64,000 nucleotides of DNA from a virus (IMGVR_UViG_3300048997_000130:32001-96000); one strand, 5' to 3'. Positions 15,187 to 53,181 are shown, counted from the stretch's first letter. Made by a program: numbers and translations. Notes: generated by a model not told the origin, from the sequence alone.

Positions 15187-15770
15187 TATTTTTTAATAAT
15201 AATCTTTTCTAGATAAGAAGCTGGATAAGGAGCTATAAGCGGTTTGGATAACAGTCGAGCTGATACTACGACTCGACCATCTTCTAATATATCAACAACA
15301 TATCCGGGTAAATTTTTATTTTCACCACGAATAATTTTGACTCTATCGTCTACTTCGAATGGTGTATTCCCGATGGCTTCCAGCCCGTCTCGCATCGGGT
15401 TTAATTTATCATCATCAATTAATGAATAAACCGGTCCACCTTTACTAGTACCAGGATTACATAATACTTCCCGGAAATAATTCGTATCTCGTAATTTCAA
15501 ATAATGGACGCCATCTTCATATCTAATGAAGATATAACCTTCCATATAAATCAGGATTTGAGAATCCGATCGAATCTTAGATGATACCGCAGGAACAAAT
15601 ACATCTATGTTGGGACGACCAAGTATCCGGCGCGCAGCACGGATTAAAATTGCTGGATCCATCCCGTGTTCCCCATTAGATGATAACTCCACAATCACCC
15701 ATTTAGGGCGCGGAGAATCACTGGAATCCACGGAAGAGTGTGGAGAATTCTTGATCTGTGATTGGGACAC
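15186..15770 (-). CDS. nusG: NusG-family transcription elongation factor
   Basis: NGN domain (KWVIV, VFVP, YMEGYIFIR) plus KOW motif FEVDDRVKIIRGENKNLPGYVVDI. Confidence 0.75.
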   Translation of the reverse strand: MSQSQIKNSPHSSVDSSDSPRPKWVIVELSSNGEHGMDPAILIRAARRILGRPNIDVFVPAVSSKIRSDSQILIYMEGYIFIRYEDGVHYLKLRDTNYFREVLCNPGTSKGGPVYSLIDDDKLNPMRDGLEAIGNTPFEVDDRVKIIRGENKNLPGYVVDILEDGRVVVSARLLSKPLIAPYPASYLEKIIIKK

Positions 15771-17157
15771 GGTTCGGATCTAACAATACCTGTTCCGACG
15801 GAGAAGAAACATTCTCGACTGTCGAATTTTTATCCGGACCGGTGGAAGGTTCGATTTTATTATCTAGTGACGTGAGATTTTCGGAAGCTGTAAATTTGAC
15901 GCCATCAACTTCAATGGATTTTTGAACAATCCTCTTAGGGGCAGTATTTTTGGTGTTCTTCTCATTAGGTTCCGAGGGCTTCGGGGCAGACGACGTCCCA
16001 ACTTTTGGAACTGAACTAGCAAGGCTCGCATCCGGTTCCGGAGATGGAAGGGAAGTAGACGTCGTCCCCACTACTGTAGGAACCGAATTACTAATAAACT
16101 TTGTATTTAGTTCCGGAGGCCTAGAAATAGATTGATGTTCTCCTCCAGTATTAGGATGATGCAGAAGTATAGCCTCGATATCTGAATAAGTAGGTTTAGA
16201 TAATGCACCCAATTGACGAGATACTTCAGTCCATGATCGTAATCGAACTTGAAATGATCGAAGAGGAACAGGATACGTAGATTGCGCACCAACATCTGCT
16301 CGAAGCCCGCTGGCGATCGCCCAAATTATAGAATCTCGTGCCCAAGTAGGTCCTTCATGTTGTGCCAGTTTATCAAGTAATTCGAATCCTGATTTTGGAT
16401 CTGAATCGATAGTAAATAATATTTTATCAATTAGTGTATAACTATCAAAATGATAAAATTCTCGAACAGAATCTAAAATCAAAGGCCCGAGTTTAGAAAG
16501 CGATTCCACAGCCAAGATACTACTACGTGGCGTACCACCGTTCATACGAATAATAAGTGTTAAAGCATCATCTTGAGCTTCAATTTGTTCTTGAGAACAA
16601 ATTGCGCGCAATCTATCATGTAGAGCATCAATAGGAGGAAGATATACCGGGTATTCCTCAATCCTATCGCGAATTGGACCTTGGACTTTAAAAGGTTCGG
16701 TAGTACATAAGATAACTATGAACAATCGAGATTCTATGGCTTTAAGCAAAGCATCTTGAGCTGCTTTAGATAATCGTTGAGCTTCGTCTAGTATATAAAT
16801 TTGTAAATCTTGACCATCAATTGATCCATAATCTGCATCACGGACCATAGCTCGTATTTTATCTATCGTGCCTTGAGATGCGGCGTCGAGTTCCTCAACA
16901 CCGGAATAAGTATCGCTTTCGATAGCTTTGCAAACTAAACAATCATTACATGGCTCCCCATCTTGGAGATTTTGACATTTAATGGCTTTAACTATAATCC
17001 GTGCTAAAGTGGTCTTCCCACAACCCTTGGGACCACCTAACATCATGGATTGATTGATCAACGATCCATCACGGCTTCTAATATGTAATAGCTTCCGGAT
17101 TCCAGGATTCCCTAATACATCAGCAAACCGGACGGGTCGATATTTAATATCAAACAT
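15718..17157 (-). CDS. dnaX: DNA polymerase III gamma/tau-like clamp loader ATPase
   Basis: KYRPVRFADVLG, GPKGCGKTT, CxxC zinc module (CNDCLVC), ELDAAS, ILDEAQRLSKAAQDALLK; low-complexity S/T/P linker. Confidence 0.88.
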   Translation of the reverse strand: MFDIKYRPVRFADVLGNPGIRKLLHIRSRDGSLINQSMMLGGPKGCGKTTLARIIVKAIKCQNLQDGEPCNDCLVCKAIESDTYSGVEELDAASQGTIDKIRAMVRDADYGSIDGQDLQIYILDEAQRLSKAAQDALLKAIESRLFIVILCTTEPFKVQGPIRDRIEEYPVYLPPIDALHDRLRAICSQEQIEAQDDALTLIIRMNGGTPRSSILAVESLSKLGPLILDSVREFYHFDSYTLIDKILFTIDSDPKSGFELLDKLAQHEGPTWARDSIIWAIASGLRADVGAQSTYPVPLRSFQVRLRSWTEVSRQLGALSKPTYSDIEAILLHHPNTGGEHQSISRPPELNTKFISNSVPTVVGTTSTSLPSPEPDASLASSVPKVGTSSAPKPSEPNEKNTKNTAPKRIVQKSIEVDGVKFTASENLTSLDNKIEPSTGPDKNSTVENVSSPSEQVLLDPNRVPITDQEFSTLFRGFQ

Positions 17158-23749: not shown

Positions 23750-26700
23750 CTAACTGCCCGCTCCAACAGCTTGAAGTGCTTCTACGAGAGTCTCGGGAGC
23801 ACGCAAACTCTCTAAAACAAATTCGGAAATTTGTTTTCCTAAATCTGAATTCCGAACGTTATCGCGTTCATTGGCAGCAGCATATAAAAATGCGTTCGGA
23901 TCACCGAATAGAAATACCTTTTTCTTGGCACGAGTAATAGCTGTATAAATAAGATTCCGATATAACATCATCCCGTATTGCATAGTCATTGGCATAAGGA
24001 TATAATCGAACTCTCTACCTTGGCAATTCCATCCGCAAAATCCATTTTGAATAAAACGATGACCATCCGGGACTTCAACACACATAGATGGTCCATCAAA
24101 TATCTCAATACGCGATATAACACTATGATGGAATTTAATCCGCTCCCGTAAAGCTCGTGATTCGTTGTTTTCTATCTGAATCCGAGATAATAGGGATTCC
24201 AATTGATGGCGAGACATATAACCACGCGTCAGAACATTTTTGTCCGCAAAAGTAAAAAATTTAGGACCACCGTTAATATCTCTAATTGATAACGCTTCAG
24301 CTTTAAGTATTGGAACTTGATAATGGCATTCATTTCCATATAGAGATTTCGCTCGTAGTTGTTTCTCATCAGTTATGAAACCGATAACATCAGCAAATCG
24401 ACCAACATTCCGACCATATATATAAATAATACGATAAGTTTTCACACACCCATCACTCAGTGTTTGACGACGCTCGCCATATCCAGATATGATGCCAAAA
24501 CGAAGTAACATCACTTTCACGTCTTTATATAATGATTCATAGCAGGTTAGTAACTCAATATGATCAACAGTCCCTAGATCTGGATTCATATTGACAGTGC
24601 CATCTTCAAACAAACCGCGCAAGAAGGCTGCTTGCACGGTCAGTGAAGAACGTAAAACAGATAATGGAACAGATTTATTTTCCGGTCCGATTCCTCCAAT
24701 ATCTAGAAGCCAGCGAGATAAAAATGTGGAATGGACTTCAATACCAGCGGTTCCGTTATGATCAATATGTTTCGGATGGCATTTAAAAAGTAACTTACAT
24801 AATTCATCGAAACGTATGATTACATCATTGGATGATGTAATCATACGAAATCCACCATCAAACACAGTTCCATCTGCGACCATTATGCCAAGAAATTCCG
24901 CCATATGAACATCCAATTCCGTAGGCACCGGATATTGGACTTCATTATAATGACCGCTGATAGGAGCAGGAAGAAACCTATTCGATTGCTCCCCCCATTG
25001 AACGCCAAGACGCAAAGCCAGTAAATTTCCTTCCACAAGCTCTGAAGCCGGACGACGAATATATCCATATTTAGAATCCCAAGTATCCATTCCATGATCA
25101 GGAGTGGTTTCAAGTACGTAACCATCTGAAGTGGTTATACGAAGCATACGACTGGAAGGATTATTGACTTTGGAATGATATTCAGCGCCGCCAGAAGGAG
25201 TAGCAATAGAACCATCAGATGGTATATCAGAAATCCGAATTAAACCTTCTGGAGTCTCAACTAGTGTATCCGGAGACACACATTTATGCGCTGTACATGC
25301 ATATGCAACATTCAACATTGAACGACATTCTTCAATCTTGAATGTGAATGTCTTATCTATATATTCAGGAACAGTAGATTCATGATTGAACCATTCAAAT
25401 ATTTTGACTTCAACCACGTCATCTTTAGCCGATATACGTTGGACTTTTCCAACGTCTCCATTGAAAATCATTCTATCATAGTCATTCTTCACGACCATGA
25501 TTCGATCCCCTTCATATAAATCACAAACGCCATGTTTTATTTTATAAGCATTGCCAGCGATATACATAGGATTTAATATCTCTCGCAATTTCTTATTTAG
25601 ATTATTAACTCCAAGTTCGCCATCATATTTAGGAGCAATAACTTGAAATAATGCGTCACGTGTCATCATTCTTTCAGTGAGGGCACATATTTCGTCAGCT
25701 ACTTGAGGCTGTGGGAAACGGAAAAATACGAATTGAGAATCCTTTCGAAAATCAGTATCTATTGCATCCCCAGCAAGTATCTGATGTGCCACTGTTATAA
25801 TATCAGACCTATCAGTCTGTCGATAAATCCGAGTCAATGATACATGCGGAACATCATCACAACGCATCAGATTATTGAGAACATAACCAGCGCCAACTGA
25901 TGGTAATTGTGCAGAGTCCCCAACACATATCAAAATAGTAGTAGATGGAAGCGCCGAAATTAAATGATAAAATGTTGCTCCATCAACCATTGAAGTTTCA
26001 TCAACAATGACAGCATCAACATGGAATTTATTCGATGAATGAAATTCCCATCCGCCATCTCGTTTATATCCAAGAGCCCGATGAATTGTAGAAGCCGGTT
26101 TCCCCGTCACTTGTGATAATCGTTTAGAAGCAATACCAGTTGGTGATAATAATACATAATGTAGATGATTCTCTTCGAATAAATCAACAAATGCAGAAAT
26201 TAATGTGGTCTTCCCGGTTCCAGGATAACCTGATATAACACACACTTTGGAATGTTCAAGCAGCATTAATGCTTGACGTTGATGCTCCGAAAGCGTTATA
26301 TTACGACGTTTTTCATATTTATCCAAAAATCCAGATAGATCACCCAAATCTTTTGGTCCATTGGCAAGTAAGTCCACTAAATATTTAGCAGATTCAGATT
26401 CATATTGCCAATTTTGGATTGAATATATTCGGGAATTATCAACGACTATATCATCATCTTCTTTTAATTGATCAAGAGCTGTGTAGAACGAAATATCTGA
26501 TAAATATTCACCATGAGAAAATGGATCGAGTCCAATTTTTTTGAACAGCCTTTGAACATACTCACGAATCTGATCCGCGGATACATACATATGTCCTTCA
26601 GATGATGATAATTCATGGATGATATATAAAATCATTGCATTAACACGGCGTTGATCGTCTCGACCGACTCCCAATTGCCGAGCAACGTTATCGGACGTTT

Positions 26701-27277
26701 GAAATCCAACGCCAGGACATTCATACAGCCAGTATGGATTTTCTTTGACTAATCGAACTGATTCAATTCCGAATCTAGTATATACGGATCGAATCTGAGA
26801 AGCAGTTAAACCTAAATTACTAAGGAATATTGCGGCCGTTCTCTGTTCAGAAGCTACTCGCCACTCATCAATTATAGATTCAATCTGTTTCTGGCTAAGA
26901 AAATCACAATCGGCAAGCTTTTCGGGCTCCGTATCCAACAATGTTATAAGATCATCACCATAAACTGCATATAATTTTCCAGCTGTTACTGGACCAATGG
27001 ACGGAACGTTATTCACTAAATATGTGATTATTCCAGATCTACTTTTTTCTGGTAATACTTCACAAGTAGTCATTCGAAATTCACGTCCATACTGGGGATG
27101 ATCGCCCCAGATGCCACGTGCATGAATTTTAATACCGACAGCTACAGGTTGACCAAGGAATGATCCCTTAACTGTAACTACAGACGCTGGTTTCTCAGGT
27201 TGAACCTTAAGAATATAATATCCAGTGCCCCGGTTGGAATACATAATTCCAACAATTTTTCCGATGAGTTCTTCCAC
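23750..27277 (-). CDS. recD2: RecD2/TraA-family SF1B helicase, intein-containing
   Basis: N-terminal HhH (IGPVTA), GYPGTGKT, IVDETSM, GDSAQLPSVGAG, IYRQ, AYACTAHK/CQG, IYTAITRAK. Confidence 0.92.
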   Translation of the reverse strand: MEELIGKIVGIMYSNRGTGYYILKVQPEKPASVVTVKGSFLGQPVAVGIKIHARGIWGDHPQYGREFRMTTCEVLPEKSRSGIITYLVNNVPSIGPVTAGKLYAVYGDDLITLLDTEPEKLADCDFLSQKQIESIIDEWRVASEQRTAAIFLSNLGLTASQIRSVYTRFGIESVRLVKENPYWLYECPGVGFQTSDNVARQLGVGRDDQRRVNAMILYIIHELSSSEGHMYVSADQIREYVQRLFKKIGLDPFSHGEYLSDISFYTALDQLKEDDDIVVDNSRIYSIQNWQYESESAKYLVDLLANGPKDLGDLSGFLDKYEKRRNITLSEHQRQALMLLEHSKVCVISGYPGTGKTTLISAFVDLFEENHLHYVLLSPTGIASKRLSQVTGKPASTIHRALGYKRDGGWEFHSSNKFHVDAVIVDETSMVDGATFYHLISALPSTTILICVGDSAQLPSVGAGYVLNNLMRCDDVPHVSLTRIYRQTDRSDIITVAHQILAGDAIDTDFRKDSQFVFFRFPQPQVADEICALTERMMTRDALFQVIAPKYDGELGVNNLNKKLREILNPMYIAGNAYKIKHGVCDLYEGDRIMVVKNDYDRMIFNGDVGKVQRISAKDDVVEVKIFEWFNHESTVPEYIDKTFTFKIEECRSMLNVAYACTAHKCVSPDTLVETPEGLIRISDIPSDGSIATPSGGAEYHSKVNNPSSRMLRITTSDGYVLETTPDHGMDTWDSKYGYIRRPASELVEGNLLALRLGVQWGEQSNRFLPAPISGHYNEVQYPVPTELDVHMAEFLGIMVADGTVFDGGFRMITSSNDVIIRFDELCKLLFKCHPKHIDHNGTAGIEVHSTFLSRWLLDIGGIGPENKSVPLSVLRSSLTVQAAFLRGLFEDGTVNMNPDLGTVDHIELLTCYESLYKDVKVMLLRFGIISGYGERRQTLSDGCVKTYRIIYIYGRNVGRFADVIGFITDEKQLRAKSLYGNECHYQVPILKAEALSIRDINGGPKFFTFADKNVLTRGYMSRHQLESLLSRIQIENNESRALRERIKFHHSVISRIEIFDGPSMCVEVPDGHRFIQNGFCGWNCQGREFDYILMPMTMQYGMMLYRNLIYTAITRAKKKVFLFGDPNAFLYAAANERDNVRNSDLGKQISEFVLESLRAPETLVEALQAVGAGS
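24026..25282 (-). mobile_element. intein with LAGLIDADG endonuclease in recD2 (419 aa)
   Basis: Starts CVSPDT, ends CVEVPDGHRFIQNGFCGWN followed by Cys; blocks LGIMVADG and FLRGLFEDG. Confidence 0.9.
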
Positions 27278-32111: not shown

Positions 32112-35100
32112 TCAACTGCATCCCGTAGTATTTCCACAGCTACTACATAAATAGCAACTCCCGCATCTGCGAGTAATCGATCCACAATTGTTACAAGGTG
32201 GAGCATCAATATTCATCTCATTATTAGGAGATGATGATAATTCAGAAGCCGGGATTGCCGTAGGAGTTATGGACTCCGGAGTAGTAGTTGTATTCCCGTA
32301 AGCTTTATCCAAACCAGAATTTTTCCCAGAAAAATAAGTCAAATCGATATATTTAAATATATAGTCATATAGACTATCTGTAAATCGAATCTTAGGATTA
32401 CCCGTATATCCAGATGGTTCAAATTTCGTATTTACGAAACAACGCACCAATTTTTCGAGTGGAACCCCGTGCTGAATAGAAATACTAAGAAGTTTAGTAA
32501 AACTATCCACCAAACCACCCATGGTGGACCCAATTTTCCCTAATCGCACAAATACTTCGCCGGGAGATCCGTCATCATATTCACCAACAATAATATACCC
32601 AGTATGTCCTGCTATATTAAATTTATGACGCCGACTATGTGAATCTATAGGCATTTTGCGTCTATCTGTCACACGGACTTCTCGTATGACTTCCCGAACA
32701 GTTTCCTTAATGCCTGATCCGGATTCCTCTGAAAAACGATTTTTAGTCTTTAGAGGTTGTGATTTCTTGCATCCGTCTCTATATAAAGCTATACATTTGA
32801 GACCGAGTTCCCAACCGATTTTATATAAATCTGCAATTTCTTCCGGAGAAGCTGTTGTTGGTAAATTTACAGTCTTGCTTTGAGCACATGTAATGAGCGG
32901 CTGAATAGCCGCCATCATTTTTAAATGCCCAAGCGGAGGAACGCAACGACCTGATGGTCCGGAAGCCATAGCACAATCAAATATCGGTAAATGTTCTGAT
33001 AGAAGTCCTGGAGCACCTTCAATGAATGAATTTTCCTCTAGATATTCACAAATCCCTTGAATAACCGGCTCTGAATATCCAAGATTGACGAGTGCGGCCT
33101 TCACAGACCCATTCACAAGTTTCATAACACCGCCACCAACAAGCGATTTATATGAAACTAAAGCAAATGCTGGTTCAATCCCTGTCGTATTCATCCCCAT
33201 AAGGAATGAAATCGTATTATGCGACACGAATCCATTGGCAATATATGTAACATTCCCAGGGACTGATATATCATAAGTAAGTTGACGGCCTTGCGATTCC
33301 ACCGTAGTAATTTCATCGTAATAAAAAGAAAGCGCATGTTGCAATCGACCAGCAAAATCAGGAATAAACTTTTCAGCAATATGCCTTGGAATCCGACCAT
33401 CAATATATCTCATTGTAGCGATTTTGCGAAAATCATGACCTATCGGACACACTTCATTAAATAATTCTTCATCAAGATAAATATAATCTCGAGCCCATTC
33501 AGTTTTCCCAAGCACTTTATCAGCCTTACGCGAACATGTAAAACCAACACGTTCCATGAACACACTAGTGAAGTTCCGAGATGTTACCGTTAAACGATAA
33601 ACAGGTTTATCACTATAACCGCCCGTCTGTATATCAAATCTTGTTGGAATCCCAACAGCCAATAACATAGTTTGCACATCACGAATGAAAGCTTCTGATT
33701 TGTTCGTGAGAGATGGTAATCCGTTGGTTACCGAACCATCACAAGTGAATAAACCTCGCAAATAAGCCCCGTATGCTCGCTTATCATTTGTAGCAAGAAT
33801 CGCATCGGGAACATGAGCTTCGAGATGGTCTATTACTTCGATTTTTGCAAATCCAGAAATTGACCACCAAGTTTTGATTTGTGTAGAATTCAAACATAAT
33901 GATATACAGTTATCAGCTGACGTAATAGTTGGATCTTTTCCGAAAAGCTCACGAATGAATCCAGCGCAACGCTCGCGCGCGTCACAATCTTGAGCGTCGA
34001 ATGCAAATCGTAGGCCTTTATGATGCGTCGAACCGTTGGCCGCAAATAATCCACACAATTCCGCCAAACGAATATCGACAATGTTTGGAATTCTAACGCC
34101 TCTATCATAATTCGGGACTAGAGAAGCAGGTAATTTCGGTAACGAAATTTGACGACTCTCGCCGAACAGTTGATTCATACTCAACGGAACAACATCTCCT
34201 TCTTTCAAAGCATCAAAACGGCGCCATTCCCATTGTCCATTCACAATAACTTTGATTTGATGCTTTGGGGTCCCGCGAAGTTGGAATCCACGATCAGTAG
34301 TCACGCCAATAATATCATCTTCACCATTTACATAAAATTGTGTAGCTTGACGTGGTCCAGCATCTGTTTGAACCATGAATTCTACATCTTGCCATTTTTC
34401 ACCATCAGGATTCCCGAGATCTTCAATTCGAATAAGTCCAAGATCTGTTGCGATAAGCGAACCTGCGATAAGGCATCCGAGTGGGGCCTGCAGACTAGCT
34501 TGTGATATACTGAATCCATGGCGCTCACCGAGTTTAATTACTTCTTCCCAAACACTATCCGATAAAGCGCAAACATCATCACCCAATGGATCAAAAGTCC
34601 CTAAATTCCAGCGTTTAGAAATATTCCGGTTGGCTTCTCGATGCATATGCATAATATTCAACATTGCATCGCGATTTTTTTCAAATTCCGAAAATGCAGC
34701 CGTCCGAGCAGCTAATTTGGCTGACCATAAATAAGCATAACCAGTCATGAGACTTGCTAACCGAGCAGCAATAGCACGGCCTTCATCCGAATTATAAGCA
34801 TGACCAAGTTGCATGAGCAGCGATCCAAGATCGCCGTAATTGAGACCGATCGGTCTCAATGCCAACGAATTCTTAGTAATAGAGTCTGTCGGATAGTCGG
34901 CTTTGGCAATAATAGCATTTTGCGCGGTCACGAAAACGCGGACCGAATGCATGAATCGCTGCGTATTTAATTTGCCATCATCAAACATTCGAGTCAAATT
35001 GATAGCACATAAATTGCATGCAGTGTTATCGACATGAGCAAATTCAGCACAGGGATTCGTAGCTCGGATCCTCCCACTACTTGGTGTGGTGTGCCAACGA

Positions 35101-36212
35101 TTTATAGTGTCGGTAAATTGGACACCAGGATCACCGCACATCCATGCAGCCTGTGCTATTTCAGTCCACAGTTCGCGCGCTTTATATTCATGAACAACTT
35201 CTCCAGTTAATCGTTCACGCGTCTTCCACATCCCATCATCAACAACCGCCTGCATAAAAGCGTCGGGAATGCTCACTGAATGATTGGCATTTTGGAATGA
35301 TACCCATTTATATGCAGAATTAGGATCGTCGTAAGCTGCACTATATCCACATTCAATAAGATCATGCGCTCGTTTTTCTTCTATAGCTTTACATCGAATA
35401 AATCCAGGACGCCCATCCATGGTCTCTAAAATATCTGGATGATCCATATCCATAATAGCCATTTTAGCCGCATTCCGAGTGGAACCACCGCTCTTCATGG
35501 CCTTGGCGCCCTTATCAAGCTCCTCCATCCATCCAAGGGGGCCACATACATACGCCCCTGAAGAGAGTTTTTCATATGATGAGCGAATTTTAGATAAATT
35601 GGCTCCTGAACCAGAGCCACCAGCAAATATAATTTTTTCAGATTTGCTGAATTCCATGATTGAATCCAACGTATCATCAACCCCAGAAATAAAACAAGCC
35701 GATGCGGCTTGGCGTCTATCTGGAATACCTACATTAAACCAGACTGGAGAATTGAATGCACCATATTGATGAAGGAGCGCATAAATTAATTCGGCTTCAT
35801 AAATTTCAGCATCTTTAGGAGAATTAAAATATTGTTGCTCATCAGCCCATTGAGTTAGCGTACGAGCAACTCGGCTAAAAAGTTGTTTAGCCGAGGTTTC
35901 TTTCACTCCATTTACCATTCTAAAATATTTACTAACTACTACATTAATGGTTGTCTCGTTCCACCAGTCAGGGACTTCGACATCGAGTTGTTCGAATACC
36001 TTCGAACCATCAGCTCGAACCATCTTAGAATCAACTATTTTCCATTTAATACTGTCAAAAGGATGGACTCCTTCTTGTGTAAAGATACGAGTCCATTTAC
36101 CAGATTCCCTGCCTTCTTTAGAAACACCAATAATGGAATCAAATACTTTCCCTACAGGTGAATCTGATCCGGATTCGGTGTTTTTATTAAGAGCGGCGGA
36201 TCCGTTTGACAT
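32112..36212 (-). CDS. nrdJ: class II (B12-dependent) ribonucleotide reductase, intein-containing, with C-terminal TSCPD/zinc-ribbon
   Basis: AFNSPVWFN, SACFI, GSGSG, NPCAEF active site, APLG/TIS, TTGIEP, SKTVN, YRDG; C-terminal CNNCG...CSSCG. Confidence 0.92.
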   Translation of the reverse strand: MSNGSAALNKNTESGSDSPVGKVFDSIIGVSKEGRESGKWTRIFTQEGVHPFDSIKWKIVDSKMVRADGSKVFEQLDVEVPDWWNETTINVVVSKYFRMVNGVKETSAKQLFSRVARTLTQWADEQQYFNSPKDAEIYEAELIYALLHQYGAFNSPVWFNVGIPDRRQAASACFISGVDDTLDSIMEFSKSEKIIFAGGSGSGANLSKIRSSYEKLSSGAYVCGPLGWMEELDKGAKAMKSGGSTRNAAKMAIMDMDHPDILETMDGRPGFIRCKAIEEKRAHDLIECGYSAAYDDPNSAYKWVSFQNANHSVSIPDAFMQAVVDDGMWKTRERLTGEVVHEYKARELWTEIAQAAWMCGDPGVQFTDTINRWHTTPSSGRIRATNPCAEFAHVDNTACNLCAINLTRMFDDGKLNTQRFMHSVRVFVTAQNAIIAKADYPTDSITKNSLALRPIGLNYGDLGSLLMQLGHAYNSDEGRAIAARLASLMTGYAYLWSAKLAARTAAFSEFEKNRDAMLNIMHMHREANRNISKRWNLGTFDPLGDDVCALSDSVWEEVIKLGERHGFSISQASLQAPLGCLIAGSLIATDLGLIRIEDLGNPDGEKWQDVEFMVQTDAGPRQATQFYVNGEDDIIGVTTDRGFQLRGTPKHQIKVIVNGQWEWRRFDALKEGDVVPLSMNQLFGESRQISLPKLPASLVPNYDRGVRIPNIVDIRLAELCGLFAANGSTHHKGLRFAFDAQDCDARERCAGFIRELFGKDPTITSADNCISLCLNSTQIKTWWSISGFAKIEVIDHLEAHVPDAILATNDKRAYGAYLRGLFTCDGSVTNGLPSLTNKSEAFIRDVQTMLLAVGIPTRFDIQTGGYSDKPVYRLTVTSRNFTSVFMERVGFTCSRKADKVLGKTEWARDYIYLDEELFNEVCPIGHDFRKIATMRYIDGRIPRHIAEKFIPDFAGRLQHALSFYYDEITTVESQGRQLTYDISVPGNVTYIANGFVSHNTISFLMGMNTTGIEPAFALVSYKSLVGGGVMKLVNGSVKAALVNLGYSEPVIQGICEYLEENSFIEGAPGLLSEHLPIFDCAMASGPSGRCVPPLGHLKMMAAIQPLITCAQSKTVNLPTTASPEEIADLYKIGWELGLKCIALYRDGCKKSQPLKTKNRFSEESGSGIKETVREVIREVRVTDRRKMPIDSHSRRHKFNIAGHTGYIIVGEYDDGSPGEVFVRLGKIGSTMGGLVDSFTKLLSISIQHGVPLEKLVRCFVNTKFEPSGYTGNPKIRFTDSLYDYIFKYIDLTYFSGKNSGLDKAYGNTTTTPESITPTAIPASELSSSPNNEMNIDAPPCNNCGSITRRCGSCYLCSSCGNTTGCS
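33216..34475 (-). mobile_element. intein with LAGLIDADG endonuclease in nrdJ (420 aa)
   Basis: Starts CLIAGS, ends YDISVPGNVTYIANGFVSHN followed by Thr; blocks CGLFAANG and YLRGLFTCDG. Confidence 0.92.
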
Positions 36213-37113
36213 TTTTTGCCTCCTCGGACAAGCGAATTATTTCTATTTCTAGGCCAGTGCGTGCAGAGCCGTCGCCACGTTTATGGAGGATATCCAAATC
36301 ACATAGCATATTATAACTTGTAATTAAAGAGTCCATAGTCCATAAACCTAAACGCGACTCGAACATTTTCTTACACACAAAAGGATGAATGTTCAATAAC
36401 TTGGCAATCTCTGTTTGAGATATACCATGCGATGCAGCATATTCCATTCGTAACTGTTGAATGACATGACGCTGCAGATATGCTAATATCCATCCTGTCT
36501 CATCCATCCGCTCTTGGAGTGCGTCCAAGTAGGCTAATGCTTTGGCAGGATGTCCTTCGCATATCGAATCTATAACTTCCTTCGGAGTAAGATCTGCGGA
36601 AAAACACAATACGGATTTAGCATCTGCTGGTGTTATAACACCAGCAGATGCTATAACCGATAGTTTCATTATCTCAGACGAAATCTTCCGCAGACTCTTC
36701 CCTGAGCTCACAAAAAGCGCACTGGCAACGCAACTTAGATCGATATTAAGCCTTTCGCCTTCTTTTATGATCCAAGGTAGGTATTCATTCTTATCGTCAT
36801 ACGCTTTCAATTTTGAAAAATTATGAATGCGTTTGGCTCGAGAATCTGTTAATTTAATTTTCGGAGTCGAAATTATTATTAATATATCAGATTCCCCAGC
36901 TGGTAGTTGCACAGGGATTTCTTTAGCATTCCATAAAATGAAAACATGACTAGAATGATTGAAAGGTTTGATTGAAATATCATCTAAGTATTGATTTAAA
37001 TTTATCGATGCGTCATATTCAGAAGATTCAAGCAGACTACACGAGACTTCGTCCTTAACTGCTCGTTCTTTCAGGAAATCTTCATCACCATTAATAAGGA
37101 TTAATTGCGGCAC
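36187..37113 (-). CDS. holA: DNA polymerase III delta subunit-like
   Basis: LILINGDEDFLKERAV start, SLRKISSEIMKL, C-terminal IHPF...DILHK...LEIEIIRL pattern. Confidence 0.75.
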   Translation of the reverse strand: MPQLILINGDEDFLKERAVKDEVSCSLLESSEYDASINLNQYLDDISIKPFNHSSHVFILWNAKEIPVQLPAGESDILIIISTPKIKLTDSRAKRIHNFSKLKAYDDKNEYLPWIIKEGERLNIDLSCVASALFVSSGKSLRKISSEIMKLSVIASAGVITPADAKSVLCFSADLTPKEVIDSICEGHPAKALAYLDALQERMDETGWILAYLQRHVIQQLRMEYAASHGISQTEIAKLLNIHPFVCKKMFESRLGLWTMDSLITSYNMLCDLDILHKRGDGSARTGLEIEIIRLSEEAKNVKRIRRS

Positions 37114-37916
37114 GGATCAAAACATCTCGATTGAAGATTAATACAAATCCTATGCCAATGTAATAAAATGTTTGCTGATGGAATCGATTCTAATAGAGCC
37201 GCAAATTTTAAAAACATAATAGCTCCAGGAATATGTTCCTTATTGATAGCAATAGCATGAACCGCCTGCTTGATAACTAATGAAATAGCATCACGTTCAG
37301 GACCATATTCATTTTTATGTTCACAAATAACTGTTGGAATAGGACACAATATTGAATCCATTCCGCCGGTTATCATCTTTTGAACAGTTATATTTAACTC
37401 TGCAAAATTTGAACAGTTAATGGTTCCAAATAATCCAGGGCGACCATAACAAAGATTAATTTTCAAGGCGTCCTCAGATTCAAAAAGGACTGCCATCTCT
37501 GCTGGGTTTAAAGTAGTCCAAGTAATGATTCTTTCGAATCGAGATCGTAATGGAGAAATTGTTGAATCAATATCTGAAGTAACAAAAATGATACGGGAAG
37601 CCGATGGTGTATCTTCACATAATTTTAAATATACATTCTGTGCAGGTTCATTTAATCGATGTAGATTATTGATAACAGCTATTCGAGTAGATCCGAATAT
37701 AGAACGATGAGAAAAAAATTCTCGAACTTCTCGAGCCCCTTCAATACCTTCAGGGACTAATAAATAATCAGTAGATTCAAAATGGTCTTTCAGATATTCC
37801 TGAATGAATGAGTGTTTTCCGATATAATCAGGTCCCGATAATACTAAACTCCGTATATTATTCGGAATTAGATTTTGGATAGTCTGTTGTTGCGAGCAGA
37901 GATTGCCGTGAATCAT
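37101..37916 (-). CDS. holB: DNA polymerase III delta-prime-like
   Basis: Degenerate Walker A SGPDYIGK, LNEPAQNVYLKLCEDTP, TISPLRSRF. Confidence 0.75.
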   Translation of the reverse strand: MIHGNLCSQQQTIQNLIPNNIRSLVLSGPDYIGKHSFIQEYLKDHFESTDYLLVPEGIEGAREVREFFSHRSIFGSTRIAVINNLHRLNEPAQNVYLKLCEDTPSASRIIFVTSDIDSTISPLRSRFERIITWTTLNPAEMAVLFESEDALKINLCYGRPGLFGTINCSNFAELNITVQKMITGGMDSILCPIPTVICEHKNEYGPERDAISLVIKQAVHAIAINKEHIPGAIMFLKFAALLESIPSANILLHWHRICINLQSRCFDPCRN

Positions 37917-43049: not shown

Positions 43050-43835
43050 ATGATGAAAAAAAGCAGCAAGAAAACCAAGAAACCGAAAAAAGCTTCGGAT
43101 TTGAAACGAGAAAAAGATAATAAACAAAAATTGCTTGATAAAGCCATTGAAGACTGCGTCTACAGGGCTTCATCTTCCAAAGAACGTGAATATTTCCGAG
43201 CAATGATAGTGGAACTCGTTAAGAATAATGTTATCCCTAAAGAATTATTAGACGCAGTCCCCGCTCGTCCAGAAGATACTCAGAAGACTCGTTTTGAGCA
43301 GTTATATGATATGGCTTTGTTCCTAGCATTTCCTGGATATGATCATGAGACTCTAAGGAAATTATTAGGTCCAGAGTCAGAAGATCTCGAAGATTTGAAA
43401 ATCTGGAGGGTGATGTTGCCCCCTAAATTCAAAATAACTCATGTGCTCATTCGGGCAACTGATTTTCGACAAGCATTCGCTTTAGGGTGTGATTATGCCT
43501 GTCGAATGTCCCTGAGGCTTTATAGAAAGATTCCTGTTGACTTAACTATCCGTATTCAATTCGTGAGTCTAAGAAGTGTTCGAAGGATGCTCGAGCTCCG
43601 TTGGGCTAATCGAATGCAGTTGCGACGGAAATATAGACTCGTTGGCCGTGAATTCACCAGTAAAGAACTCACAGGGGCTCGAATGGTGGCTTTAGGGAGT
43701 CCGACCCATCCGGAATATAATATATTCAAATATGCGGAATGGAGAGATCTAATTAAGATTTTGAAGAGTGGGAATCAAATAAGAATTTCTTCGGTCGAAA
43801 CTGAAACCTTCCGACCAACCATCAATGATGATTAA
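43050..43835 (+). CDS. basic hypothetical protein
   Basis: 261 aa, Lys/Arg-rich; first gene after the strand switch. Confidence 0.6.
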   Translation: MMKKSSKKTKKPKKASDLKREKDNKQKLLDKAIEDCVYRASSSKEREYFRAMIVELVKNNVIPKELLDAVPARPEDTQKTRFEQLYDMALFLAFPGYDHETLRKLLGPESEDLEDLKIWRVMLPPKFKITHVLIRATDFRQAFALGCDYACRMSLRLYRKIPVDLTIRIQFVSLRSVRRMLELRWANRMQLRRKYRLVGREFTSKELTGARMVALGSPTHPEYNIFKYAEWRDLIKILKSGNQIRISSVETETFRPTINDD

Positions 43836-44020: not shown

Positions 44021-45202
44021 ATGCAAGCTGGCAAATTCAATATAATAATCGACGGGTTTTGGGGTTCTTCAGGAAAAGGTAAGATATCTACATACCTCGC
44101 CGATCAATATAATTCTACATTCATATCATCGGCCAATTATCCGAATGCAGGTCATAGTGCTGTGTTTGAGAACGGCGTCAAATTCGTTGCCAAAGCCATT
44201 CCGACTTCAGCCATTCTCAAGAAGGTCAAAGGCACAGACATACAGTGTTTCCTTTCTCCTGGATCTGGATTCAATCCCATACAACTCTTAAAAGAATGGG
44301 AAGAATGCGACAGACCAAACATATTTATCCACGATCGAGCCTCAATAATGACTTCAGAACATGCACTTCGGGAGCGAGAAGGTTCGGATTCGACCAAACA
44401 CATTGCCTCCACCATGCAAGGTTCTGGAGTCGCTATAGCAGATAAAATAATGCGTAGACCGGATGTTCAATTAGCAAAGAATTGGGATCCGAAAGTGACC
44501 CTTCATGATAATGATCATCTTGAATCTGTGTTTGGGGATGATCTCGAGCGGATCCGAATTACGGATGGAATGGAATTCAGGAATTTAGTTCATTCTATGG
44601 TTAATAACGGGCAAACTTGGCTCCATGAAGGTTCCCAAGGTTATTCGTTGTCCATAGATCATGGGTCACAATATCCATATACTACGAGCAGGAACTGCGG
44701 AGTTCAAGCCGCCATGGATTATATGGCGATCCCACCTCAAATAGTTGGTGATGTATATTTGAATCTTCGTACTTATCCTATTCGAGTAGGGAATGTTGTT
44801 GAAAATGGACAACAACTCGGATACTCAGGTGATTTTTATCCGGATTGCACGGAACTCACTTGGAAAGAAGTTGCCCGGCGAGCTGGAATGCCTGATGAAG
44901 AAGCTCAAATGCTAGCTGAACGCGAGCGGACTACAGTGACAAAACGAATTAGAAGGGTTTGTAATTTTTCGTATCTTGGATTACAAGATGCCGTGAGAAC
45001 GAATGGTGCGACCAAACTTTCCATGAATTTTATTCAATATATTGATTGGTCTGACGCTGGTTTACGAGGAGGAAAAGAAGCTTTCAAGAAGCTTTCCAAG
45101 AAAAGCAGAACTTTCATTGATAAAGTCGAAGAAGTTGCTGGAGTCCCGGTTGTTCTTATTGGAACAGGCGCCAGTCATGAAGAAATCATTAATTTGCTGT
45201 AA
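44021..45202 (+). CDS. purZ: PurZ-type N6-succino-2-amino-2'-deoxyadenylate synthetase (adenylosuccinate synthetase family)
   Basis: WGSSGKGK (Ser where PurA has the catalytic Asp of GDEGKGK), PNAGHS, ASTMQGSG, EGSQGYSLS, YPYTTSRNC, YPIRVG, YPDCTELTW, TTVTKRIRRV, and NFIQY in place of the PurA KLD guanine-specificity motif. Confidence 0.85.
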   Translation: MQAGKFNIIIDGFWGSSGKGKISTYLADQYNSTFISSANYPNAGHSAVFENGVKFVAKAIPTSAILKKVKGTDIQCFLSPGSGFNPIQLLKEWEECDRPNIFIHDRASIMTSEHALREREGSDSTKHIASTMQGSGVAIADKIMRRPDVQLAKNWDPKVTLHDNDHLESVFGDDLERIRITDGMEFRNLVHSMVNNGQTWLHEGSQGYSLSIDHGSQYPYTTSRNCGVQAAMDYMAIPPQIVGDVYLNLRTYPIRVGNVVENGQQLGYSGDFYPDCTELTWKEVARRAGMPDEEAQMLAERERTTVTKRIRRVCNFSYLGLQDAVRTNGATKLSMNFIQYIDWSDAGLRGGKEAFKKLSKKSRTFIDKVEEVAGVPVVLIGTGASHEEIINLL

Positions 45203-45865
45203 ATGGCAAAATCTAAGCATGGGCATTATGTTGGAAATAAACCAAGCCCAGAATATTATACGTGGCGTTCTATTAAAGCAAGATGTTTAAATCCAAAACA
45301 TCATAATTATGATGTTTATGGTGGAGCTGGAATAATTTTAGATGAAGTCTGGGCATCTAATTTTGAAATATTCTTACGTGATATCGGGCTTCGTCCTTCA
45401 CGGCATCATACTTTAGATAGAATCAAAAATGATTTAGGATATGTTCCAGGCAATGTTAGATGGGCAACTCGACACATTCAAAATCGGAATCGCAGTGATA
45501 ATCATTGGATTACGTTTAATAATGAGACATTATGTCTCAAAGATTGGGCTAATAAATTAGGTTGTACGCCCAATGCAATACGTACAAGGGTATTACGTGG
45601 TTGGTCTTGGGAAGCTGCGGTTAGTACTCTACCCAATCCAAAATTACAAACCAAAAAGAAAATATATAATCAATTAGAGACAATCGATAAAGATATTAAG
45701 GTACATATTACACAACAAGCAATAAAATTATATAATGGCGGACAATTGATTCGATCTATAACGAAACATGAATTAAATAATGATAAATCGTTGTCGAATT
45801 CGATATCCAATATTATTGATATAATTCGTGTTTTAGAATCAAATACTATAGCTACGCCGATTTGA
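45203..45865 (+). CDS. free-standing HNH homing endonuclease
   Basis: YYTWRSIKARC...YGGAGI...TLDRIKNDLGYVPGNVRWATRHIQNRNR; abuts the purZ stop. Confidence 0.85.
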   Translation: MAKSKHGHYVGNKPSPEYYTWRSIKARCLNPKHHNYDVYGGAGIILDEVWASNFEIFLRDIGLRPSRHHTLDRIKNDLGYVPGNVRWATRHIQNRNRSDNHWITFNNETLCLKDWANKLGCTPNAIRTRVLRGWSWEAAVSTLPNPKLQTKKKIYNQLETIDKDIKVHITQQAIKLYNGGQLIRSITKHELNNDKSLSNSISNIIDIIRVLESNTIATPI

Positions 45866-46415: not shown

Positions 46416-46975
46416 TATGGTGACTTCTTTTTGCGTTTTAAATGAATACCAATTTGATCGGTATTCTCAATCATATATTTATGAACTGAATTGAAATATC
46501 CAGCTATCGGATGTGCTGCATCTTTTCGCATTAATCGTTCTAAAATCAACATATTTTCATAATCGGAAAACAACCAATTTTCAGTTATCGGGACTCCGGG
46601 ACTAATTTGACTCCAAACATTTCCAAATGGCAGCATTATTAATACGTATTCAGTCTTTTGGAAATGCGGAGGACTAGAAGTCGGTATGAATTCTTCACGG
46701 CGTTTAACCGAAAAAAAGACTCCAGGAGGTAAATCTATTCCGTTAGGAGTTTGAGTTACCCATCGTTTAATACTTACCCACTTAACTTCAGGGGTTTTTA
46801 TACCTGACAGTTTTCGACATTTTAAAGAACAACTATATAACGCTGATGGTGATAGTTCACATGTCCATGGTCGGAAGTCCGATGGTAAATCGGTATTTAC
46901 ATGTAGTTCATTAAACCAAAAAACTCCAAGCGATGTTATGCGTTGTTGTAATGTTGGTTTTTGTTCTTCATCCAT
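46415..46975 (-). CDS. hypothetical protein
   Basis: Probable start MDEEQK at 46975 (track start 47011 would overlap thyX). Confidence 0.55.
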   Translation of the reverse strand: MDEEQKPTLQQRITSLGVFWFNELHVNTDLPSDFRPWTCELSPSALYSCSLKCRKLSGIKTPEVKWVSIKRWVTQTPNGIDLPPGVFFSVKRREEFIPTSSPPHFQKTEYVLIMLPFGNVWSQISPGVPITENWLFSDYENMLILERLMRKDAAHPIAGYFNSVHKYMIENTDQIGIHLKRKKKSP

Positions 46976-46991
46976 AGAAAGACTCCATAAA

Positions 46992-48335
46992 ATGACGCAT
47001 AGATCAGCCAATATCTTCTGTCTTACCGATTCAGAAGGGAGATTATTATCTCCAGCTGTACAAGCTACTGTACTAGCAAAATATTCAAGATCCCCATTAT
47101 CAGCTCAAGAATTACTTGCGCAGTTAACTGAAGAAGAAGCTGATAAATTCCAAAGCAAATGGGTTGTTGGATATGGTCATGACTCCGTTGCAGAATTGGC
47201 AACAATACCAATATGTTTAGAAGGTGTATCTATCATAGCTTCCAAGATTCTAGAGTCTTGGCCGCGCGCGGCTTATTCTGAAAAAAGCACTCGATATCAA
47301 ATTTTTTCGAAGGATTCGTTTGTTACGCCTCCTGGCGCTCCTGATACAATGAAACAGTTCGCCGGACGATTTTACGAAGCTTATGCTGCATTAAATGTTC
47401 GAATGATTCGTAAAATCGCCGAACTTGTAGGTGATGATCCGGAAAATCCTAAAACAACTACTAAGGCACGAGCGTTCGATAACGTCCGTTATTTGCTGCC
47501 AGCCGGAACTGGCACTAACGTGGCTGCTGCAATGAACTTACGTGACGTGCGCGACATGATAACAACGTTGCGCGGTCATACCAATAGTGAATTCAAAGCC
47601 ATTGGTGAAGGAGTTTATACTGCTGCCATGAGGATGGCTCCGGCACTCATCAAATATACTGAACCCGATACTTTTTCATTACCAGTTAAAAGCTTAGGAG
47701 CAATAAACTCGGCATTCTCATATGAACATCCACAGCCGTGCGTCAATATTTATAATTCAGAATGCATATCTGATCCTCAAATGGAAATGTCCATTTTTAA
47801 AGCCGCTGTCCAAGATAGACATACTATGAATTGGGAAACATTTAATCAACACATGTTATCTCGACCTTCTCATGCTGGAGTCCCAGATATTTTTAAAACT
47901 ATCAAAATCTCGTTCGAAATTATTATGGATTATGGCGCATTCCGCGATTTACAAAGGCATCGGCGTTGTGATCAATTCACAGAACCCTTCCGATCCGATT
48001 ATGGATATGTGGTCCCTGAAGATATAGTGGGAACCGATTTGGAACCGGATTATCGGTCAGCCATGGAATCTCTATCGTCATATCAAGACGAACGCGTAGT
48101 CCACGATCCGGATTGGTTCCAATATATGATTCCGCTTGGATATTTACATAGATCAATCTTTCAAATGGATTTGAAAGAACTCTATTACATAACTGAACTT
48201 CGTACTAAACCACAGGGACATATTTCGTATAGAAGAATTGCTTATGAAATATATCTGTTAGCACAACAGCGATTCCCGGAGCTTATGCAATGGTGTCGTG
48301 TTGTTAAGCCCGAATCTGTAGGTTTACATACATGA
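46992..48335 (+). CDS. thyX: FAD-dependent thymidylate synthase, double-domain (Thy1/ThyX) type
   Basis: AKYSRS, GYGHDSVAELA, EKSTRY, FDNVRYLLP, second-domain DYGAFRDLQRHR; start MTHRS at 46992. Confidence 0.88.
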   Translation: MTHRSANIFCLTDSEGRLLSPAVQATVLAKYSRSPLSAQELLAQLTEEEADKFQSKWVVGYGHDSVAELATIPICLEGVSIIASKILESWPRAAYSEKSTRYQIFSKDSFVTPPGAPDTMKQFAGRFYEAYAALNVRMIRKIAELVGDDPENPKTTTKARAFDNVRYLLPAGTGTNVAAAMNLRDVRDMITTLRGHTNSEFKAIGEGVYTAAMRMAPALIKYTEPDTFSLPVKSLGAINSAFSYEHPQPCVNIYNSECISDPQMEMSIFKAAVQDRHTMNWETFNQHMLSRPSHAGVPDIFKTIKISFEIIMDYGAFRDLQRHRRCDQFTEPFRSDYGYVVPEDIVGTDLEPDYRSAMESLSSYQDERVVHDPDWFQYMIPLGYLHRSIFQMDLKELYYITELRTKPQGHISYRRIAYEIYLLAQQRFPELMQWCRVVKPESVGLHT

Positions 48336-52269: not shown

Positions 52270-53181
52270 ATGGAATTGCCCAAACATTTTATGGTATGTA
52301 TATCAGGATATTCTGGAACTGGAAAAGACGAGGTTGCCAAAAGATTAATAGCGAAATTCGGAGCTTTCCAAACAGGACTCGCAGATCCAGCCAAGCGCCA
52401 TATGGCGGATTTATATGGATTTAGTGAAGACCAATTATTCGGTCCTTCGGCTTCTCGAAATGCCGGAGATCTTAGATATCCTAAAGATTCATTTTTTGAT
52501 AAGAATTTGACAGTATCTGAATTCTGTTCTGAGAATTATCCGAAAGATTTGATCGGAAACTTAGAACCAGGAGTTATTTATTGGCAAAGTTCTGGTCGCG
52601 GATTCCATCTTCCTAATAAACCGGCGCTTCCATATATACCACTACGTTTAGGAAGTGGTATAACACTAATTCCGGATAGGCATCCATATTTTTGGCTATC
52701 GCCTCGTGAAGCATTACAAAAATACTGTGAAATCATGAATTCAATGTATTTAGATACCTGGATTCGTAAAGGTATTGAAATCCATAAAAAATTAGCAGAG
52801 TTAGATACTAATAACAAAATATTTACTTATAAATATTCGCCTATGCTTGGGTTAGAATTCAATACTTTAGGTACACGACATCGAGCGGTTGGGAATAGTC
52901 CCATCATCACTTGTTTTGCTGATTTCCGGCATAAGCACGAAATTAATTTAACTCGCAAGACTACAGATTTGATTCCTGTCCTTGTTCGGATTAAAAGGCC
53001 TTCTGTTCCCGATCCACCATATGATCATAGATCAGAAGTTGAACAATCAACCATTCCAGATTCAGTATTCGATTTTATAATCAATAATGATAGCACATTG
53101 GAGAATCTATGGACCAATATCGATAATATGGTGGATGATTTCACAGCATCTCAATGGGAATCTTCAGGAGACACACTATGA
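52270..53181 (+). CDS. deoxynucleoside monophosphate kinase (T4 gp1-like)
   Basis: GYSGTGKD P-loop, ADPAK, SPREALQ, ADFRHKHE, VRIKRP, HRSE, DFIINND. Confidence 0.85.
   Translation: MELPKHFMVCISGYSGTGKDEVAKRLIAKFGAFQTGLADPAKRHMADLYGFSEDQLFGPSASRNAGDLRYPKDSFFDKNLTVSEFCSENYPKDLIGNLEPGVIYWQSSGRGFHLPNKPALPYIPLRLGSGITLIPDRHPYFWLSPREALQKYCEIMNSMYLDTWIRKGIEIHKKLAELDTNNKIFTYKYSPMLGLEFNTLGTRHRAVGNSPIITCFADFRHKHEINLTRKTTDLIPVLVRIKRPSVPDPPYDHRSEVEQSTIPDSVFDFIINNDSTLENLWTNIDNMVDDFTASQWESSGDTL

Follow-up and report, generated by a model that had tools for sequence, protein, structure and literature searches.

A PurZ-type synthetase gene in an uncultured huge phage, candidate for a 2-aminoadenine genome

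The stretch of DNA analysed here (the window, 64,000 nucleotides) comprises bases 32001-96000 of a single linear IMG/VR contig of 196,676 bp, and positions are counted from the first base of the window. At 44021-45202 on the plus strand lies an intact reading frame with an ATG start, which encodes a divergent PurZ relative of 393 amino acids; judging from its residues, profile matches, phylogenetic trees and an AF2 model, this purZ-type gene is predicted to specify an N6-succino-2-amino-2'-deoxyadenylate synthetase. Directly upstream is a conserved 261-aa ORF (43050-43835, plus strand), for which Pfam, PHROG and NCBIfam hold no match and Atlas nothing usable, but which is found at the equal position and with 48-52% identity in two related genomes (G001 and G003). 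Downstream, an HNH homing endonuclease gene (45203-45865, plus strand; PHROG 3377 at 1.9e-43) begins at the base immediately following the purZ stop codon and has no counterpart in the syntenic loci of these two relatives.

Several surrounding genes belong to nucleotide metabolism. A 465-aa thymidylate synthase of the ThyX type (46938-48335, plus strand; PF02511 at 3.4e-33), with counterparts of approximately 60% identity at the syntenic positions in G001 and G003, is part of the same nucleotide-metabolism module as purZ. A deoxynucleoside monophosphate (dNMP) kinase follows at 52270-53181 on the plus strand (PHROG 139 at 6e-22, a weak PF21448 match and 49% identity in G003), and on the minus strand a class II (B12) ribonucleotide reductase (RNR) carrying a LAGLIDADG intein occupies 32112-36212 (PF02867 at 2e-101, together with PF08471, PF14528 and PF14890). 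The order RNR, holA, holB-like gene, three ORFs, 261-aa ORF, purZ, 198-aa ORF and thyX is common to the contig, G001 and G003, at 30-70% identity; the 198-aa ORF downstream of purZ is without a match in Pfam, PHROGs and NCBIfam. The window also contains a Mom-like DNA-modification domain, at a distance of 31 kb from purZ.

A hallmark of the purZ product is the set of motifs GSSGKGK (residues 15-21), YPIRVG (252-257), TTVTKRIRRV (304-313) and NFIQY (336-340), all of which had been quoted in the first-pass annotation and are indeed found in the 393-aa ORF. In an alignment with the PurZ proteins of S-2L, phiVC8, SH-Ab 15497 and Bm1, the PurZ0 proteins of Wayne and Ghobes, and E. coli PurA, Ser16 of the purZ product shares a column with S14 of phiVC8, S23 of S-2L and the catalytic D13 of E. 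coli PurA. This aspartate is reportedly 99% conserved in PurA and replaced by serine in every phage PurZ (PMC12884076). Ser16 is invariant both in the alignment of 21 relatives, which have 64 invariant columns in common, and in 13 tabulated huge-phage homologues. Further along the chain, PIRVG is found where PurA has (S/T)TRVG, and TTVTK where PurA has GATTG or G(A/T)TG. The donor pocket, N336-F337-I338-Q339-Y340, aligns with N305/F306/Q308/Y309 of S-2L and F295/N297/Y298 of phiVC8, among which N305, F306 and Q308 of S-2L and F295 and Y298 of phiVC8 are adenine-binding residues (PMC8342488; bioRxiv 10.1101/2025.10.22.683976). The guanine-motif aspartate is kept in PurA and PurZ0, whereas the K/D motif has become F/Q-Y in the purZ product.

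On the side of the nucleotide substrate, 16 of the 20 contacts of S-2L PurZ are identical and three are changed conservatively. The residues that make room for the 2-amino group, Ser16 and Thr304, are conserved, as is Val256, the equivalent of S-2L V241, which acts as a steric gate against the 2'-OH. From these residues we infer the substrate specificity of the enzyme and its use of an ATP-type donor. A preference for deoxynucleotides is suggested mainly by the conserved Val256; since Arg309 occupies the column of PurA Arg303, which touches the 2'-OH of the ribose, the sequence by itself does not settle this preference.

Profile searches place the protein safely in the PurA/PurZ superfamily (PF00709 at E 1e-35, with 123.7 bits against a Pfam gathering threshold of 27) and closest to PurZ within it, although outside the family as it is now delimited. 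The best PHROG is 1211, annotated '2-aminooxy adenylosuccinate synthetase' (E 5e-58). The top NCBIfam model is that of PurZ (NF038379, succino-amino-deoxyadenylate synthase), on which the protein scores 195.3 bits, below the curated cut-off of 300, whereas the controls, S-2L PurZ and Wayne PurZ0, exceed it with 349.8 and 366.7 bits, respectively. The model of archaeal-type PurA (NF003295) follows at 189.6 bits, 6 bits under the PurZ score. Because of the sub-cut-off score the protein is best termed a new PurZ variant, with a PurZ-like working. Sequence searches of the PDB rank the short PurA of P. horikoshii (phmmer 5e-31), S-2L PurZ and phiVC8 PurZ level at ~1e-30 to 1e-31, and E. coli PurA at only 1e-15. 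Among 50,697 phage records, the closest match reaches 34.6% identity, and S-2L PurZ 31.5%.

The AF2 model (pLDDT 86.8, pTM 0.88) has its best Foldseek matches in S-2L PurZ (7ODX, E 8e-29), phiVC8 PurZ (6FKO/6FM1) and P. horikoshii PurA (5K7X), with TM scores of 0.8-0.88. As 7ODX, 6FKO and 5K7X are matched about equally, the fold does not discriminate PurZ from the P. horikoshii enzyme. With the PurZ proteins of S-2L (7ODX) and phiVC8 (6FM1/6FKO/6TNH) the purZ product shares the fold (TM 0.83-0.84), the serine in place of Asp13, PIRV, TTVTK and the adenine pocket N-F-x-Q/N-Y. However, it is only 31-35% identical to them and 30-50 residues longer, with insertions at ~150-180 and after RVG, and its C-terminal segment is P. 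horikoshii-like and unlike theirs. Short archaeal-type PurA (P. horikoshii 5K7X/2D7U; NF003295) is similar in length class and in the C-terminal segment, and is matched at a TM score of 0.88; it uses IMP and GTP, however, and has GDEGKG and PTRVG where the purZ product has Ser and Ile.

Phylogenetic trees were computed with FastTree on 176 sequences and with IQ-TREE (LG+G4, 1000 UFBoot replicates) on 61 sequences; the Asp-type outgroups comprised E. coli PurA, the short protein of this type from phage LR756501 (735 kb) and three sequences of bacterial type taken from phage records. Ser-type proteins separate from Asp-type PurA with a UFBoot of 100 in the IQ-TREE tree, and FastTree agrees. In both trees PurZ0 is the earliest branch of the Ser-type side, and the group that carries the F..Y motif and leaves out PurZ0 has a UFBoot of 98. 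The purZ product thus falls with PurZ, sharing with the S-2L and phiVC8 enzymes its side of the PurZ0 split and standing apart from PurA and PurZ0, in trees that do not contain archaeal short PurA. It resides in a clade (UFBoot 100) from phages and contigs of 160-440 kb, whose position as sister of the classic small-phage PurZ is weak (UFBoot 66 only). A phylogeny of PurA, PurZ and PurZ0 had been proposed as a check in the first-pass annotation, and no clustering with canonical PurA is observed. The residues and the phylogeny together support its principal claim: 44021-45202 is predicted to encode an enzyme that works like PurZ and is not of the PurA type.

Two comparisons help to delimit this assignment. 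PurZ0 (Arthrobacter phage Wayne, Gordonia phage Ghobes and Archimedes, 7VF6) has the serine at Asp13, PIRV and TTVT in common with the purZ product, but keeps a PurA-like aspartate in the donor motif (TMLDQ, SFADQ) where the purZ product has NFIQY; PurZ0 phages carry DutZ, DmtZ and DUF5664 (PMC12884076), none of which was found in the contig or the relatives searched. Flavobacterium phage MaF61 (168 kb, PQ858689) encodes a 'putative adenosuccinate synthetase' with the Ser/PIR/TTxTK/NFxNY signature in common, and is likewise a large phage, which also encodes adenylosuccinate lyase. Its PurZ-like protein is 28% identical, contains a long insertion behind the RI motif and differs in position between the two trees; no paper on the chemistry of MaF61 DNA was found.

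The phage that bears this gene is uncultured, and its genome is expected to measure roughly 400 kb. CheckV estimates the completeness of the contig at 44%, and relatives with terminal repeats are 363-436 kb long, so that its description as giant or jumbo-like in the first-pass annotation was right in spirit. Homologues of the purZ product form more than 120 clusters at 62-69% identity in metagenomes, on contigs of up to 445 kb, and an alignment-based scan of IMG/VR yielded 78 loci. Five complete genomes with direct terminal repeats (G001-G005; 363-436 kb) encode PurZ proteins 57-67% identical to the 393-aa protein. The purZ neighbourhood conserved with G001 and G003 assigns the contig to the G001-G005 clade. 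A second group (G008-G012; 354-408 kb) has PurZ at 43-46% identity, and in its neighbourhood purZ alone matches the locus of the contig. Several of the homologues are interrupted by inteins within the active-site motif, YP|CTSRN; inteins in active-site motifs are typical of indispensable genes.

The first-pass annotation had linked the gene to a replisome of the Pol III type, with DnaX-, HolA-, HolB- and beta-like factors. Of these, the clamp-loader genes are recovered in the window, all on the minus strand: a DnaX-like (gamma/tau) clamp-loader ATPase at 15718-17157 (PF13177 at 4e-20; TIGR02397 with 175 bits, under the cut-off of 250), HolA (delta) at 36187-37113 (PF21694 at 1e-12; TIGR01128 with 103 bits, above the cut-off of 80) and, weakly, a HolB-like (delta') protein at 37101-37916 (PF13177 at 4e-9). 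The beta clamp is not: PF00712 is without a match in the contig and four relatives, and a 383-aa ORF beside holB belongs to no recognisable family. Further replication genes of the window encode a DnaG-type Toprim primase, an intein-bearing RecD2-like helicase, a FEN-like 5'-3' exonuclease and an NAD-dependent ligase. With respect to the polymerase, the Pol III designation does not hold, as Pol III alpha (PF07733) is found neither in the contig nor in G001-G005. No DNA polymerase of family A, B or C was found in the contig, and the family A polymerase encoded by G001-G005 measures ~950 aa and includes an exonuclease domain; that of G002 scores 51.4 and 28.8 bits on the DpoZ models NF038380 and NF038381, respectively, far below their cut-offs of 500 and 350. 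Pol III alpha is seen only in the distant PurZ-bearing group G008-G012, which has no HD gene, and the initial picture of PurZ and Pol III without DatZ therefore fits that lineage better.

In the contig, profile searches detect no DatZ-like, MazG-like, DUF550, DUF5664, dUTPase, NDT or MazZ-2 gene. The contig represents only ~44% of the genome, and the absence of helpers from it is thus uninformative. PF04447 (DUF550/MazZ-1) and PF18909 (DUF5664) match neither the contig nor 12 relatives but respond in the positive-control phages S-2L, SH-Ab 15497, Bm1 and Wayne, and phrog_9860, PF00692 and PF05014, which stand for MazZ-2, DutZ and DmtZ, match neither the contig nor four relatives (phrog_9860 without a genome-search control). 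One HD-domain ORF of the contig, at contig positions 161189-162073, was considered as a DatZ and rejected, since it resembles an HD protein of the CCA-adding/poly(A)-polymerase type.

Relatives, on the other hand, do carry candidate helpers. In G001-G005 and the partial genome G006, PHROG 7076, 'dATP triphosphohydrolase', matches an HD-domain protein at E 1e-17 to 1e-21 (S-2L DatZ, for comparison, at 6e-22). The gene is YfbR-like by Pfam (up to 1.5e-24), and comparison with four genuine DatZ proteins by hhalign yields a probability of 96%. The hallmark residues of DatZ are R19, W20, I22, K81 and K116, with I22 excluding the 2-amino group (PMC8065100). The enzyme of the relatives retains R19, K81 and the metal ligands, whereas W20 is replaced by Y/F and I22 by S/T (R-Y/F-S-S/T versus R-W-G-I in DatZ); the combination Y20-T/S22 is reportedly prevalent among the HD enzymes of contigs that resist restriction and are enriched in dZ (bioRxiv 10.1101/2025.10.22.683976, section 6). 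The nearest relatives of the HD enzyme among cultured phages are not PurZ phages, and its subtype is found at 15 IMG/VR loci, mostly fragments and all apparently from the G001-G005 clade. A synteny search of the contig for the DatZ region of the relatives matched one small unrelated ORF, which indicates that this region falls outside the fragment.

Always directly downstream of the HD gene in these relatives is a MazG-like gene with E-x-x-E and E-x-x-D helices. The AF2 model of its product (pLDDT 85) resembles all-alpha NTP pyrophosphatases, the dCTPases DCTPP1/RS21-C6 best, followed by iMazG and MazG; its likeness to MazZ-1 is weak and limited to one helix (hhalign 21%). The pairing of an HD gene with an all-alpha MazG-type gene is the same as that of datZ and mazZ in S-2L, phiVC8 and SH-Ab 15497. 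In the huge phages, however, the pair does not adjoin purZ, the HD motif is not R-W-G-I and the pyrophosphatase is neither DUF550/MazZ-1 nor MazZ-2. The pair lies ~10 kb from the family A polymerase gene and far from purZ (~234 kb in G001). Judged by the co-location criterion for Z-clusters (PMC8342488), no HD or MazG gene is located near purZ in the window, G001 or G003. Two further genomes, G007 (315 kb) and G017 (251 kb), have PurZ without the HD/MazG-like pair. A Lyase_1 protein is encoded by G002, G005, G006, G007 and G009, and that of G002 is a bona fide PurB (TIGR00928, 474 bits versus 326).

These findings qualify the statement of the first-pass annotation that datZ, mazZ and dpoZ are missing. 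It is correct for the contig, but cannot be extended to the genome as a whole, given the 44% completeness and the HD, MazG-like and family A polymerase genes of G001-G005. The accompanying suggestion of a new route to Z-DNA is weakened by the helpers of the relatives and survives in a weaker form, as a non-canonical helper set: MazZ-1, MazZ-2, DUF5664, DutZ and DmtZ are lacking, the polymerase is not DpoZ, the HD enzyme is a variant and some relatives have their own PurB.

In the literature consulted, Z-genomes are described for phages of tens of kb, namely S-2L (45 kb), phiVC8 (39 kb), SH-Ab 15497 (43 kb) and the PurZ0 actinophages. Compared with S-2L and phiVC8, the genome of the huge phage is about ten times larger, and the helpers of its relatives are far from purZ. 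PMC13128860 mentions more than 2000 viruses whose prediction is based on PurZ homology; full-text literature searches returned no paper linking PurZ or 2-aminoadenine to jumbo phages, huge phages or megaphages. On the strength of the PurZ-type residues and the phylogeny, it is reasonable to predict a Z-genome for a very large phage, and the lineage that bears this purZ probably makes Z-DNA, in which 2-aminoadenine takes the place of adenine; the Z content of the DNA and the roles of the helpers are inferred.

Synthesis could proceed in the following manner: PurZ, as its residues and family membership suggest, would join dGMP and aspartate at the expense of ATP or dATP to form dSMP. PurB would then convert dSMP to dZMP, the enzyme being that of the host for the phage of the contig and phage-encoded in some relatives. 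Phosphorylation of dZMP to dZTP would fall to kinases, among them possibly the phage dNMP kinase encoded at 52270-53181, a candidate for the step from dZMP to dZDP, with host kinases contributing. Up to dZTP, the scheme draws on residues and family membership. In the relatives, the dNTP pool is probably biased by the HD hydrolase (YfbR/DatZ family) and the MazG-like pyrophosphatase, through removal of dATP and provision of dGMP; for the phage of the contig, the equivalents would be encoded in the part of the genome, half or more, that the contig does not cover. A non-discriminating polymerase may finally write Z opposite T, such that much or all of the adenine is replaced. There is precedent in the PrimPol of S-2L, which writes Z without discrimination (PMC8065100).

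The avoidance of A-containing restriction sites, suggested in the first-pass annotation as a further check, says nothing about Z. GAATTC and GGATCC, which had looked frequent by eye in that annotation, are near expectation in the contig, whereas GATC is under-represented (808 observed versus 1050 expected, z -9.6). In phiVC8, a proven Z-phage, GATC is depleted to a much greater degree than in the contig (4 observed versus 152 expected), which renders the measure uninformative.

Because the lineage has neither a proven dATP-specific DatZ nor a Z-selective DpoZ, the PurZ-type enzyme might make dZ for a genome that is substituted in part, or for pool manipulation or counter-defence, which we consider unlikely. 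The absence of the W20/I22 specificity pair from the HD enzyme, the non-DpoZ polymerase of the relatives and the PurZ-bearing genomes G007 and G017 without the HD/MazG-like pair are compatible with partial substitution, and a Z-cluster placed in E. coli without full dATP exclusion leads to partial replacement (PMC8342488). Yet S-2L replaces A fully without a Z-selective polymerase, by means of DatZ (PMC8065100), dATP is also consumed by S-2L PurZ itself (PMC8342488), and Y20-T/S22 is reportedly prevalent in the HD enzymes of restriction-resistant contigs enriched in dZ (bioRxiv 10.1101/2025.10.22.683976). It is distinctly improbable that the enzyme acts on a different substrate, GMP or another 6-oxopurine nucleotide, and thereby feeds a different purine modification or the ribonucleotide pool: Val256 (S-2L V241), Ser16 and Thr304 are conserved, and neither of the two relatives compared has an enzyme for a follow-on modification linked to its purZ. 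Such a substrate would be in line with a deep-branching clade that scores under the curated PurZ cut-off, with Arg309 in the PurA Arg303 column, with insertions after RVG that are longer than in classic PurZ and with the Mom-like domain 31 kb off in the window. As to the repurposing of PurZ for another purine modification, raised in the first-pass annotation, nothing found in the analysis points there.

Finally, the gene could encode an ordinary adenylosuccinate synthetase (IMP, aspartate and GTP), acting as an auxiliary metabolic gene that boosts the AMP supply. Homologues are annotated as 'adenylosuccinate synthase' in the source databases, the model of archaeal-type PurA nearly equals the PurZ model in score and the fold of P. 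horikoshii PurA matches equally well; the catalytic Asp13, 99% conserved in PurA (PMC12884076), is however a serine that is invariant in the relatives, the guanine-specific K/D motif has become F/Q-Y, and the separation from PurA has a UFBoot of 100, all of which makes an ordinary PurA very improbable indeed. The preferred reading thus remains that of a PurZ-type enzyme in a lineage that probably makes Z-DNA.

A wider proposal is put forward tentatively, at slightly less than even confidence: the lineage of 360-440 kb, together with a second PurZ lineage that uses Pol III alpha, may build Z genomes with independently assembled helpers. These would comprise an HD dNTPase of the Y/F-S/T type, a DCTPP1-like MazG, in some cases a phage-encoded PurB and dNMP kinase, and a family A polymerase other than DpoZ that works with a bacterial-type clamp loader. 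If true, these genomes would exceed all other natural non-ATGC genomes in size by a wide margin, and 2-aminoadenine modification would not be confined to small genomes. Inteins, homing endonucleases and phage-borne CRISPR systems would then prove compatible with Z-DNA, and huge-phage metagenomics and long-read basecalling would have to allow for it. The lineage would also offer a second, independent set of pool-control enzymes, along with Z-tolerant polymerases, for study and for synthetic biology.

The base that directly follows the stop codon of purZ, the gene encoding the PurZ-type protein, is the first base of an HNH homing endonuclease gene (window 45203-45865, plus strand; PHROG 3377, 1.9e-43). 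The syntenic loci of the two relatives compared, G001 and G003, have no HNH gene at the corresponding place, and this one therefore looks like a recent mobile insertion adjoining a conserved gene. Intein-like insertions were observed within three metagenome homologues of purZ (P0121, P0123 and P0132; 747-1197 aa): they total ~370-380 aa, and each starts with Cys, ends with Asn and interrupts the YP|CTSRN motif of the active site (at residues ~219-221 of the query). In the PurZ-bearing relative G007, the purZ ORF is 811 aa long, approximately twice the normal length; the alignment resolved no single large insertion there. LAGLIDADG domains are found in three large genes of the window, all on the minus strand: those for the large terminase (1105-4707), a RecD2-like helicase (23750-27277) and a class II ribonucleotide reductase (32112-36212), the terminase and the reductase also containing an intein-splicing domain. 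This LAGLIDADG/intein load is unusually high for 64 kb.

At its C-terminus, a 608-aa protein (window 11432-13258, minus strand) bears a domain of the Mom family (PF25680, 2e-20). The Mom protein of phage Mu modifies adenine at N6; by analogy, a second DNA modification might therefore operate in a phage that is predicted to swap out adenine.

A dUTPase (PF00692) was not found in the complete relatives G001, G002 and G003 (393-436 kb), the 315-kb genome G007 (rated complete) or G000, the whole contig to which the window belongs, although genes for ThyX and ribonucleotide reductase are present in them. The relatives G003 (L091 2782-3081) and G001 (L094 2602-2973) each have an ORF with the C-terminus ...VMES shortly after the MazG-like gene, which in complete relatives follows the DatZ-like HD gene. 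The sole HD-domain ORF of the G000 contig, 294 aa in length, lies outside the window (G000:C1:161189-162073, plus strand); it shows weak domain matches to tRNA-nucleotidyltransferases and poly(A)-polymerases and is no candidate for DatZ.

PurZ-type genes, 43-45% identical, also occur in a second huge-phage lineage, represented by five IMG/VR contigs of 354-408 kb (G008-G012; loci L048, L042, L049, L044 and L067). This lineage has split Pol III alpha genes, and its family A polymerase is a short fragment only. No clear DatZ-like gene was detected in G008-G012, the single match being a marginal one in G012 (E 0.05); G010 yielded a MazG match and G009 a PurB-like match.

Among cultured phages, the 168-kb Flavobacterium phage MaF61 (PQ858689; locus L003) encodes a protein with the PurZ signature (GSSGKG, PIR and NFVNY), annotated as adenylosuccinate synthetase, together with an adenylosuccinate lyase; the two genes are positioned at 118051-119394 and 129735-131090. 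As a large phage that can be cultured, MaF61 may allow a direct examination for Z-DNA, that is, DNA containing 2-aminoadenine.
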